DNA of 63,827 nt, counting the filler, from Reclinomonas americana ATCC 50394 (taxonomy: Eukaryota): assembly GCA_048213135.1 (NCBI GenBank). It is 9 parts of 8 records of this genome, joined end to end, with 100 filler letters (N's around TTAATTAATTAA, not from the genome) between each part and the next. Parts side by side here need not be neighbours in the genome. Positions count along the whole stretch, not along the records: positions 1 to 13,114 come from AFZH01015917.1; 8 more parts are not named here. One strand, given 5' to 3'. Each line of letters begins with the position of its first letter. The first letter of the stretch is position 1. A program made the position numbers and the translations under genes. The notes beneath the pieces are model-generated. The model worked only from the letters and a program-made list of their open reading frames with translations, was not told the origin of the DNA and ran no database searches. Below, piece after piece: positions 3,455-6,400 of the stretch.

Positions 3455-6400
3455 ATGGTGCACTCACACACACTCTTTTCCCCCCGCCCCCTTCGGCCCC
3501 ACACTAACCTCTGTGACCTCCAGCGGTGTGCAGTACGCCTGCGCGGTGGCGGCTGCTGCACCTCGAGCAGCGTCGATGACGACCCGGGTCGACTCATTGG
3601 AGCCACCCGCCAGGCGCGACCCACCGAGCCTGCACGCCGTCTGGCTGCCAACCGTCTCATGAATGCAGCGCGTGTGCGCTCTCTGCTGCGTGAGTTGGAG
3701 TACACGATGCAGGCGGCCGAGTCACTCAAATCAATTTCTTCCGCTTCGTCGTCGTCGTCGCCGCCGCTAAACACTCGCGACCCGAACGACCTGGACGCCG
3801 TGTCGATGGTGTCAGGAGGCGACGCAGGTGAGGGAGCTTCGTTTGGACTGGGCGTCACCGAGGCCGATGTGACGCGGCGGCGAGCGGGAAGTGCGGGCAG
3901 TGCAGGCAGTGCAGGCAGCGGCAACCGCGCTTCGCTGCGTGAGCAATTTGCCGCGCAGAACAAGGCGCGCGGAGTGGCGGCTGAGTTGCAGCGCTCGTTG
4001 GAGGAGATTGTTGAGCTGGTGCGCGATATCGAGGAGGCACTGCTGATTGGCCTGTTGCCGACGGACCCGCTAGTGGCAGTGGGGGGTGGCGATCGCTCGG
4101 CGGCGAGTATGCGTGACTTGGTGACGCAGCTGTGTGCGCTGGTGCAACAACGGTGCGCGCGCGCATGTGTGTCTCTGTGTGTGTTTCCGTGCATACCCCT
4201 GACTCGGTTGTCGCTCGTAGCGTGTCGGTGCCGAATGTGCTTGGCGATGTGCACCGCTTCGTACTCTGCCGACTGGCCGCCCTGTTGCCGGATGTGGCAC
4301 TGCGAGCGTGCGCCGATCCGCATGTGCCTCTGCGCACACGGGCACAGCTGGAGACCACACTGTCGCAGATACACGCCGACTTGCGCGCCGGTTAGTCACG
4401 CCATTTCCTCACGCCCTCTCCCCTCTCACCTCTCCTCGTCTGTCTTCCACAGAGGGCCAGCGTGGCATCCGGGAATTCACGGCCGAGGCCGACATTGATG
4501 CCGCAGTGACGCTGTTGGCCAACTTGAAAGCCGACGGTGGTGCTTTGGCGCCCATCGTTCGTTTCGCCGTATTCGGTGACAATAATGACGCGGTGGCGGC
4601 GCGCACCGCAGCCGAGGAAGTGCAGGAACAGGTGTGTGTACTCTCTCTCTCTCTCTCACACACAGAAACTCACTGGAGAATGCGCAGGCCGAGTCATCGT
4701 GGTGGAGTCAGGTGGTGGTCATCAAGTACATGGGCCGGATTGTGCTGTCGCGACCCGATGCCGCTGCACAATTGGCTGCGCTGGTGGACATGCAGCTGGT
4801 ATGTGCCTCCACTCACATGCACTTGCGCATTAAAAAACTCACATCTCTTCACCCTGTGCTGCAGGCGGCACAGCGGTGGCGCTTCTCTCCGCATGTGCAC
4901 TACCACATGATCCCCCTCCTCCTGCGACTGGTGTTTGCCACGGACAACAACAGCGTTGCTGCGCAGGCCTTTTTCGGCATTGCATCGTCAGTGCGCGAGC
5001 AGGGTGAGTCCATTTCTCTGTCTCGCTCATGCTCATGGCGCGTTCTTCTCACCACGCCCACGCAACAGCACCGCTGCCGTCGCTGGCCACTTTGTGCTTC
5101 CACGGAGACTCCACGACGCGGATTGCGGCGCTGAATGCCTGTCAGCTCCTTGTTGGCCTGCAGCACGGACTACCGCCCGACTTGATTTCCCTCGGCGCCG
5201 CGTGTGTGGTGACACGAGCACGCAACACGGAGCGCGACGAGGCCGTTATACGAGCCGCTCTCATTGATACGCCGCGTTTCTTGTCTGTCTTCTGTCGTCG
5301 CATCACCACATTGAGTGGTGCGGCACGGAGAGCCATTATCGAGAACCCCGAGGGCGATCACGGGCGGTTCGAGCTTGGCTCGTTGGTGATGTTAGACCAG
5401 ATGCAGCAGGTGGCTGCTGTTCGCGGCACCGTGCCGATTTATGTGCCACCGATTGGTAGACGCGTGCTGTCGGAGCGCGATGCATCGCCCGCAGCACAGA
5501 TTGTCAACGACTTTTTGGCCTCCACCGACAAGGTGCGTGTGTGCGTGCGTGTGCACAATGTCTCGCCCTCTCTCGTCCAAGCCTTCACCATCCATGCGTC
5601 TCCTTCACATCGCTGCAGCTGCTTCTGATCTTGGGTGTGGTGGGGAGTGGAAAGACCACCCTCATTCAACGTCTGGTGCTGGAGCAGTGGAGCTCATGGC
5701 GTGCCGGTCGACCCATTCCCGTAGCTGTACAATTGGCGACGCTTTCGGCTGCCGATTTTGAACGCGGTCTCATGGAGACGATGCTGCTCCGTGAGGGGTT
5801 TTCTGAGTTGCAGGTCTGCGCGAGAATTCATGCGCGCATTTATGCCATTCTTCTTCCAACACTCTCGTGTTTCTGCGCGCAGATTTTGTCTATGAAGACG
5901 ACGCAGGTAATTGTTTGCTTGTCGTGCAATCTACGTGCTGCGGGATACTCACATGCTGCTGCGTGGGGTGTAGTGTTTCTCGCTGTTTTTGGATGGCTAC
6001 GATGAGCAGATTCACTCGCAGGCGAACTTATGGGAATCCTTCCGGCTGGCAGTTGCGCCACTCGACCACCTAGTTTTCCCTTGCTGTCTTCTGGTGGTTG
6101 TACTGATTGATTAACTGCGCACACAGGGCTGGCAAGTGCGCGTTGTTGTCACCTGCCGCACTGAACATCTGCGCCTCCTGGGTCGCCACTATGTCAAGGC
6201 CAGTTGTTTTCCGTGTCGCGTGATCTATGTTGTGCACCGCTCGTCTCACTGTTGCATGCAGATGTTTGTGGACCCGCTCGTCGCCAGCCGTCGCTCAGTG
6301 CGCAAGCTCTTTCTCAGTCGCTTCACATACGGACAAGTCGAGAATTTTTTGCGCCAGTGCGTTTGCCGAGCTTTCCTCGTTCCCCCGCCCCCCTGCTGAG

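Follow-up and report, generated by a model that had tools for sequence, protein, structure and literature searches.

The gene and its leader

The DNA considered here (the window, 63,827 nucleotides from Reclinomonas americana ATCC 50394, filler included) carries on its plus strand a large gene for an NLR-like protein of the STAND type, and our subject is the leader of this gene, in which the ubiquitin-tail pentapeptide RLRGG is directly followed by GCCTSSSV, a string reminiscent of a lipidation signal. An earlier note on this DNA had read the combination as a lipidation motif hidden behind a ubiquitin-tail mimic, to be laid bare by a protease. We favour another reading, which we hold with about as much confidence as doubt: the leader would be an uncleaved, disordered tail that carries a displaced acylation cassette, possibly S-acylated on cysteine, and its RLRGG would be incidental.

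The gene runs from 3455 to 10871 in about 28 exons coding for roughly 1,750 residues and ends with TAA at 10869-10871. It was modelled by manual reading and by two exon-chaining scripts, one of which, based on position weight matrices (PWMs), mis-models 6127-6507, where the manual reading is better. The surroundings of the leader are rich in G+C (0.56-0.60) and in short introns. The encoded protein begins with an orphan N-terminal region of about 560 residues, followed by a NACHT-like P-loop, then by pentapeptide repeats and finally by WD40 repeats. Pfam scans were run on single, unjoined exons. The top match of the P-loop exon (5619-5813, GVVGSGKT) is NACHT (PF05729; E 2.4e-4, 21.4 bits, cut-off 26.7); the score falls under the gathering threshold because only 65 residues are contiguous in this exon, and membership in the family, although formally below threshold, is likely. 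A Walker-B-like LFLDGYDE was identified by eye in exon 5974-6072, pentapeptide repeats (PF00805) match exon 7635-8573 with 22.7 bits (cut-off 20.2), and WD40 (PF00400) matches exon 10023-10262 with 35.3 bits (cut-off 27), with weaker beta-propeller matches elsewhere. The label of NLR-like STAND protein, already used in the earlier note, is thus a fair one. The approximately 560 residues that precede the P-loop match no Pfam family above cut-off, and at E<=0.1 give just two chance-level matches (E 0.07-0.08), in exon 4455-4631.

The motif string is present in the DNA as the earlier note described it: direct reading agrees with the note's positions for the start codon, the candidate intron and both halves of the motif. 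The ATG (3455-3457) is immediately followed by a GT (3458-3459), then by a CTAAC box (3504-3508) and a CAG that ends at 3523. From 3524 the codons are CGG TGT GCA GTA CGC CTG CGC GGT GGC GGC TGC TGC ACC TCG AGC AGC GTC, which up to 3574 translate as RCAVRLRGG-GCCTSSSV, the pentapeptide shared with ubiquitin precursors being spelt CGC CTG CGC GGT GGC. This frame is the only one that continues into the large gene, and its open reading frame (ORF), 3389..4498, has its first in-frame ATG at 3455 and the next at 3659. Retention of the 66-nt GT..AG stretch keeps the frame, as the note had said, and gives the product MVHSHTLFSPRPLRPHTNLCDLQ-RCAVRLRGGGCC. The note had also named the AG at 3532-3533 as an acceptor that would undo its reading by a change of frame; joined to donor 3458, this acceptor leads into a frame that stops at TGA 3660-3662.

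The 66-nt candidate intron looks, on sequence features, like the other introns of the gene. Twelve introns curated by eye are 54-85 nt long, 11 of them end in CAG, and several start with GTGCGY or GTAYG. The candidate scores 3.6 as donor and 2.3 as acceptor (leave-one-out ranges of the curated set -1.7 to 5.9 and -1.8 to 9.3, respectively), scores that are reached by 7.5% of the 4,341 GT and 11.7% of the 3,593 AG of the window. Its pyrimidine fraction is 0.71, against 0.52-0.77 (mean 0.62) for introns and 0.45-0.57 (mean 0.51) for exons. A single-sequence AlphaFold 2 (AF2) model of exon 1 (mean predicted local distance difference test score, pLDDT, 57.4), used for its pattern of order and disorder alone, puts residues 1-6 and 9-31 below a pLDDT of 50, that is, it predicts a disordered leader, and starts the first long helix, with low confidence, 11 residues ahead of Met 3659.

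Table 1. Features of the leader, of its gene and of the neighbouring sequence (positions in the window)
Feature	Position	Strand	Basis or remark
Short upstream ORF, MGIGTASKASKKR followed by a stop, in the frame of the gene	3332..3373	+	Src-like Met-Gly and basic peptide
Candidate start codon	3455..3457	+	First in-frame ATG of ORF 3389..4498, context aagATGg
Candidate 66-nt intron, GTGCAC...CTAAC...CAG	3458..3523	+	Length, PWM scores, pyrimidine content
Leader, from candidate intron to next in-frame ATG (45 codons)	3524..3658	+	Codon log-odds, AF2
RLRGG	3536..3550	+	Sequence reading; unique in the six frames of the window
GCCTSSSV, acylation-like cassette without adjacent Met	3551..3574	+	15/15 bases shared with EF-hand gene start
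Alternative start codon, ctcATGa	3659..3661	+	Its use would leave the motif untranslated
NACHT-like NTPase exons (P-loop 5619-5813, Walker-B-like 5974-6072)	5619..6072	+	Pfam, eye
Pentapeptide-repeat region	7346..7760	+	PF00805 in exon 7635-8573
WD40/beta-propeller exons, ending at TAA 10869-10871	7800..10871	+	PF00400 in 10023-10262
First exon of EF-hand gene, MGCTSSTVKDPSLGEVAANVENK, comparison cassette	11048..11116	+	Sequence comparison

A probable displaced acylation cassette

The STAND gene is followed on the same strand by two tandem EF-hand genes (11048-11957 and 12116-13016), which begin 177 nt and about 160 nt past the preceding stops; the first matches PF13499 with 43.7 bits (cut-off 30). 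Their proteins start with MGCTSSTVKDP (ATG 11048) and MGCGTSTVKAP (ATG 12116), both canonical Met-Gly-Cys dual-acylation starts. The leader string GCCTSSSVDDDP is close to the MGCTSSTV start 7.5 kb downstream, with bases 3555-3569 identical to 11052-11066 at all 15 positions, and the 16-mer 3554-3569 matches this start with one mismatch and nothing else at that level. None of 2,000 codon-shuffled leaders and none of the 2,613 other 135-nt windows of the 64-kb sequence (maximum 28) reached the alignment score of leader and EF-hand exon, 30.

The residues in common are G-C-T-S-S-(S/T)-V-x-D-P. The two contexts differ in that the EF-hand glycine comes after Met, whereas the leader glycine comes after RLRGG, and in that the leader has GGC, TGC and AGC doubled (GGC GGC TGC TGC ACC TCG AGC AGC against GGC TGC ACC TCG AGC). 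This doubling suggests that triplets slipped in a leader under weak constraint; such slippage would also have supplied part of the glycine run. Exon 1 also contains in-frame simple repeats, (TCG)5 at 3746-3760 (a serine run) and 3.2 copies of a 9-nt unit at 3890-3918 (GSAGSAGSAG), which show that slippage is tolerated in the N-terminal region; Tandem Repeats Finder did not flag the leader itself. The acylation motif that the earlier note saw in GCCTSSSV is thus real as a likeness, being a near-copy of the start of a neighbouring gene. Judged by its sequence, GCCTSSSV looks like a relative of a genuine acylation cassette that has been displaced from its initiator Met and altered by triplet slippage, although convergence under codon bias could also have produced the resemblance.

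Likeness to a cassette does not make the leader a substrate of co-translational N-myristoylation. G-C-C-T-S-S (3551-3568) conforms to the dual-acylation consensus, G-x-x-x-S/T with Cys beside the Gly (PMC11467418), and yet the Gly2 after an initiator Met is lacking, since the codon before GGC 3551 is another GGC. Gly 3551 sits 10 (spliced) or 32 (unspliced) residues from the initiator Met, out of reach of co-translational N-myristoylation. Of 60 enumerated 5' models, the 25 with the highest scores all lack a Met-Gly-Cys start, and trans-splicing or a non-canonical acceptor immediately before GGC 3551 was ruled out because no AG is found there.

The ubiquitin tail and its chance expectation

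In ubiquitin-fusion precursors a beta-grasp fold stands directly upstream of the pentapeptide. Here at most 32 residues precede the motif, and the open frames of 3285-3659 match no Pfam family at E<=1. The residues just before the leader RLRGG (CAV) also differ from those that precede it in ubiquitin. The ubiquitin-tail mimic of the earlier note therefore survives as regards the pentapeptide and fails as regards the body of ubiquitin, of which no trace precedes it in any frame.

The six-frame translation of the window (127,650 residues) contains RLRGG once, at the leader site, and LRGG nine times. If residue frequencies are taken from a set of 2,032 confident coding residues in the window and a proteome is set at 10,000-30,000 proteins, RLRGG by itself is unremarkable: it is expected 4.5e-6 times per position, which amounts to 2-6 proteins with it among their first 50 residues and to 23-68 cases proteome-wide.

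Searches for relatives gave blanks. Exon 1 (209 aa) had 0 matches at E<=0.001 in a HMMER search of 1,835,955,588 representatives, including none to the N-terminal regions of plant NLRs. Word-based protein searches covered proteins of up to 2,000 residues that exceed the query in length and share 5-mers with it, and their blanks are weak evidence: exon 1 found no match, exon 7635-8594 (320 aa) found none among proteins of 561-2,000 residues, and the 45-residue leader found 56 word-sharing candidates, none at E<=10. Among these 56 there was no counterpart of the LRGGGC starts that the earlier note mentioned for ciliate NACHT-WD40 proteins. The ESM Atlas gave no usable match. A literature search on NACHT, pentapeptide repeats, WD40 and STAND brought up, by title and abstract, cyanobacterial or bacterial systems.

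The preferred reading and what weighs against it

What our reading takes directly from observation is the sequence, the architecture of the gene, the likeness to the cassette of the neighbour and the absence of a ubiquitin fold. The leader would be the flexible, disordered N-terminal tail of a large STAND protein in which an orphan helical region is followed by a NACHT-like NTPase, by pentapeptide repeats and by WD40 repeats, and its GCCTSSSV would be a displaced relative of the Met-Gly-Cys start of the first EF-hand gene. We infer that the tail stays uncleaved, that it undergoes at most S-acylation of Cys3, Cys12 and Cys13 (numbered in the spliced form), with the help of three arginines, and that the cassette originated by slippage. 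The resemblance of RLRGG to the ubiquitin tail would be a product of CGC, CTG and GGY codons in G+C-rich DNA.

The closest parallel to such a tail is found in plant coiled-coil NLRs, which are also NLR-type STAND proteins with an N-terminal Gly and Cys-Cys followed by helices (PMC11467418). RPS5 has Gly2, Gly3 and Cys4, PML5 has Gly2, Cys3 and Cys4, and the N-terminal acylation of both is required for membrane localisation and activity (PMC11467418). The plant proteins differ from ours in that their Gly comes right after the initiator Met and not 10 or 32 residues in, and in that they combine NB-ARC and LRR instead of NACHT-like, pentapeptide and WD40 parts.

Several points speak against our preference. 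First, a site exposed by cleavage would be expected to look just like this one, in which GG is directly followed by a near-copy of a genuine myristoylation start. Second, under independence one would expect only 0.0005-0.0015 cases per proteome of RLRGG with an immediate G-C-x-x-[ST] among the first 50 residues, which makes "incidental" an uncomfortable explanation; this figure is weakened by the post hoc choice of the pattern, which has no replicate, by the contribution of codon doubling to the glycine run, and by the looseness of the PROSITE-style myristoylation pattern, which has 1,965 matches in the six frames. Third, the second EF-hand paralogue has no DNA similarity to the leader (its score is reached by 1,403 of the 2,000 shuffles and by 1,750 of the 2,613 windows), so that the cassette match rests on one gene. 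Fourth, the predicted disorder comes from the single-sequence, low-confidence AF2 model. Finally, the choice between the starts at 3455 and 3659 is, judged from sequence scores, a tie: among 60 alternative 5' structures the ab initio scores are 10.8 for ATG 3455 unspliced, 10.6 for ATG 3455 spliced and 10.5 for ATG 3659.

Alternative explanations

This tie opens the way to the best of the alternatives, which we regard as appreciably less probable than our own reading and still as a serious competitor. The pyrimidine-rich tract 3473-3523 would contain or precede the transcription start and the protein would begin at ATG 3659 (MNAARVRSLL...), so that RLRGG-GCC would lie in the 5' untranslated region (5' UTR). 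Three of four neighbouring genes (the two WD40-only genes described below and the first EF-hand gene) have a pyrimidine-only run of 25-52 nt in the 60 nt ahead of their ATG. Upstream of ATG 3455 the longest such run is of 6 nt, and the tract lies just downstream of this ATG. However, an intronic tract explains these pyrimidines equally well, and the comparison involves four genes only. Codon usage also argues for the downstream start: the leader (3524-3658) has a codon log-odds of 0.036, the best of its three frames, compared with 0.224 just after 3659 and 0.20-0.27 in clear exons. Space points in the same direction, as the WD40 gene upstream has a conserved 3' flank that extends to about 3291 and leaves some 160 nt for a promoter and a 5' UTR before 3455. 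On the other side, the context of ATG 3455 (aagATGg) is better than that of 3659 (ctcATGa), all four neighbouring starts having A or G at -3 and G at +4; an mRNA that starts in the tract would first meet ATG 3576, which opens an out-of-frame ORF; and the predicted helix, of low confidence, already begins 11 residues before Met 3659.

The pyrimidine runs of the neighbours (654-719, 2098-2131 and 11002-11047) might mark promoters or 5' UTRs in this organism. The out-of-frame ORF at 3576-3662 has 28 codons, and its stop TGA (3660-3662) overlaps ATG 3659 as ATGA, a layout known from termination-reinitiation. Directly upstream of the STAND gene, also on the plus strand, lie two tandem, near-identical WD40-only genes with seven repeats each (720-1802 and 2132-3211; WD40 matches of 245 and 257 bits), whose similarity runs about 80 nt beyond the stop and includes a common CTGTAAAGTGTG box at about 3280-3291. 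A 5' model with ATG 3262 and a 253-nt intron had the top raw score (11.6); we rejected it because this ATG has conserved stretches of the preceding WD40 gene's 3' flank on both sides.

The protease-gated model of the earlier note is, in our opinion, unlikely. According to this model a protease cuts after RLRGG, Gly 3551 becomes N-myristoylated and the Cys-Cys pair S-palmitoylated, and the cut gates the membrane targeting of the STAND protein or makes it a sensor of the protease. The exposed G-C-C-T-S-S would indeed be a near-copy of the true MGCTSS start of this locus and would fit M-G-X-X-X-S/T (PMC11467418), the RLRGG-GC juxtaposition is rare by chance, and the predicted disorder of the leader would make it accessible. 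The enzymology restricts the choice of proteases. Deubiquitinase (DUB) classes other than ZUFSP require fully folded ubiquitin, which this leader lacks, and UCHL3 and coronaviral PLpro cut RLRGG-AMC (AMC, aminomethylcoumarin) orders of magnitude more slowly than ubiquitin-AMC (PMC8776766). The ZUFSP, ZUP1 and Mug105 enzymes, on the contrary, all cut the bare RLRGG-AMC faster than ubiquitin-AMC where tested, and hold Arg-72 and Arg-74 by salt bridges (PMC8776766); both arginines are present in the leader. These DUBs are the only peptide-competent candidate class documented for RLRGG cleavage, so the model would be biochemically feasible in principle through one class of enzymes, ZUFSP. The likeness to the known ZUFSP substrate stops at the pentapeptide, as no ubiquitin fold comes before it, and the portion of PMC8776766 used here contains no natural non-ubiquitin substrate of the kind of the leader.

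There is good precedent for the exposure of embedded Gly/Cys acylation sites by proteolysis. It is proven in the type III effectors AvrPphB, ORF4 and NopT (PMC2708883), which resemble our leader in having a sequence before an internal Gly, a Ser at P5' and a nearby Cys, and in which lipidation follows proteolysis. They are, however, bacterial cysteine proteases that cut themselves beside a GDK motif (PMC2708883), whereas the STAND leader comes without a protease domain, belongs to a eukaryotic STAND NTPase, has RLRGG as its proposed site, and its cleavage is only a proposal. It is also proven for BFSP1, in which cleavage by caspases at D433 turns a cryptic internal Gly into a substrate of N-myristoyltransferase (PMC6713518, PMC10297038); here again the differences are clear, the cut being made after Asp by caspases, in a protein that is no STAND protein and has no ubiquitin-like site. 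What stands against the protease-gated model, besides the missing ubiquitin fold, is that the searches gave no homologue, paralogue or other protein with such a leader, that the start codon and the intron are candidates only, and that a literature search on LRGG and myristoylation brought up, by title or abstract, no such mechanism.

A more specific lipid-switch reading strikes us as slightly more doubtful still: a ZUFSP-type DUB or a pathogen protease of the LxGG type would cut RLRGG|G and bare a borrowed copy, without Met, of the Gly-Cys dual-acylation cassette of this locus; the NLR-like protein would be myristoylated and palmitoylated and move to a membrane only in the presence of that protease activity, and so act as a decoy-free protease sensor in a protist.

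The weakest candidate, which we consider very improbable, is a model with a further coding exon upstream (ATG 3332, MGIGTASKASKK), in which the removal of 3369-3533 as an intron would give a Met-Gly start, a basic patch, LRLRGG and Cys-Cys, with ATG 3455 inside the intron: the in-frame splice does yield MGIGTASKASKK-LRLRGGGCC with the full ubiquitin hexapeptide, acceptor 3533 outscores 3523 (3.9 against 2.3) and lies about 25 nt from the CTAAC box instead of 16 nt (hand count), the G+C content at third codon positions of 3332-3367 is 0.83, and the neighbouring EF-hand gene has a first intron of, by reading, about 160 nt; but the context of the ATG is poor (tccATGg), the short ORF has a codon log-odds of -0.07, the intron would have 165 nt against the 54-85 nt of the curated introns of the same gene, and donor 3369 scores -5.7, far under all 12 curated donors, which is why we rank this model low. 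The probability that is left over goes to an assembly error or to something that we have not considered.

Significance and other features of the window

If the leader is uncleaved, the protein may be one more NLR-like protein with an N-terminus resembling a lipid anchor, possibly S-acylated, as known in plants, which is of local interest, and the locus would provide a small example of a short targeting cassette common to unrelated neighbouring genes. If the cleavage at RLRGG were true, gating of membrane targeting by deubiquitinase-like proteolysis would be seen here for the first time in a eukaryotic STAND protein, and the protein would at the same time be a natural non-ubiquitin substrate for peptide-competent DUBs.

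Elsewhere, an Rfam scan of the whole window gave 0 matches, and at 35630-36964 on the plus strand lies an ORF whose product has the N-terminal domain of alanine racemase (PF01168, 59.4 bits). Masked or gap stretches are of two kinds: eight pairs of 44-N runs, with 12 bases between the two runs of a pair, occur at 13115-13214, 22965-23064, 33186-33285, 41092-41191, 52827-52926, 54315-54414, 56792-56891 and 61913-62012, and longer N runs at 24400-24887, 30539-31181 and 57473-58190.

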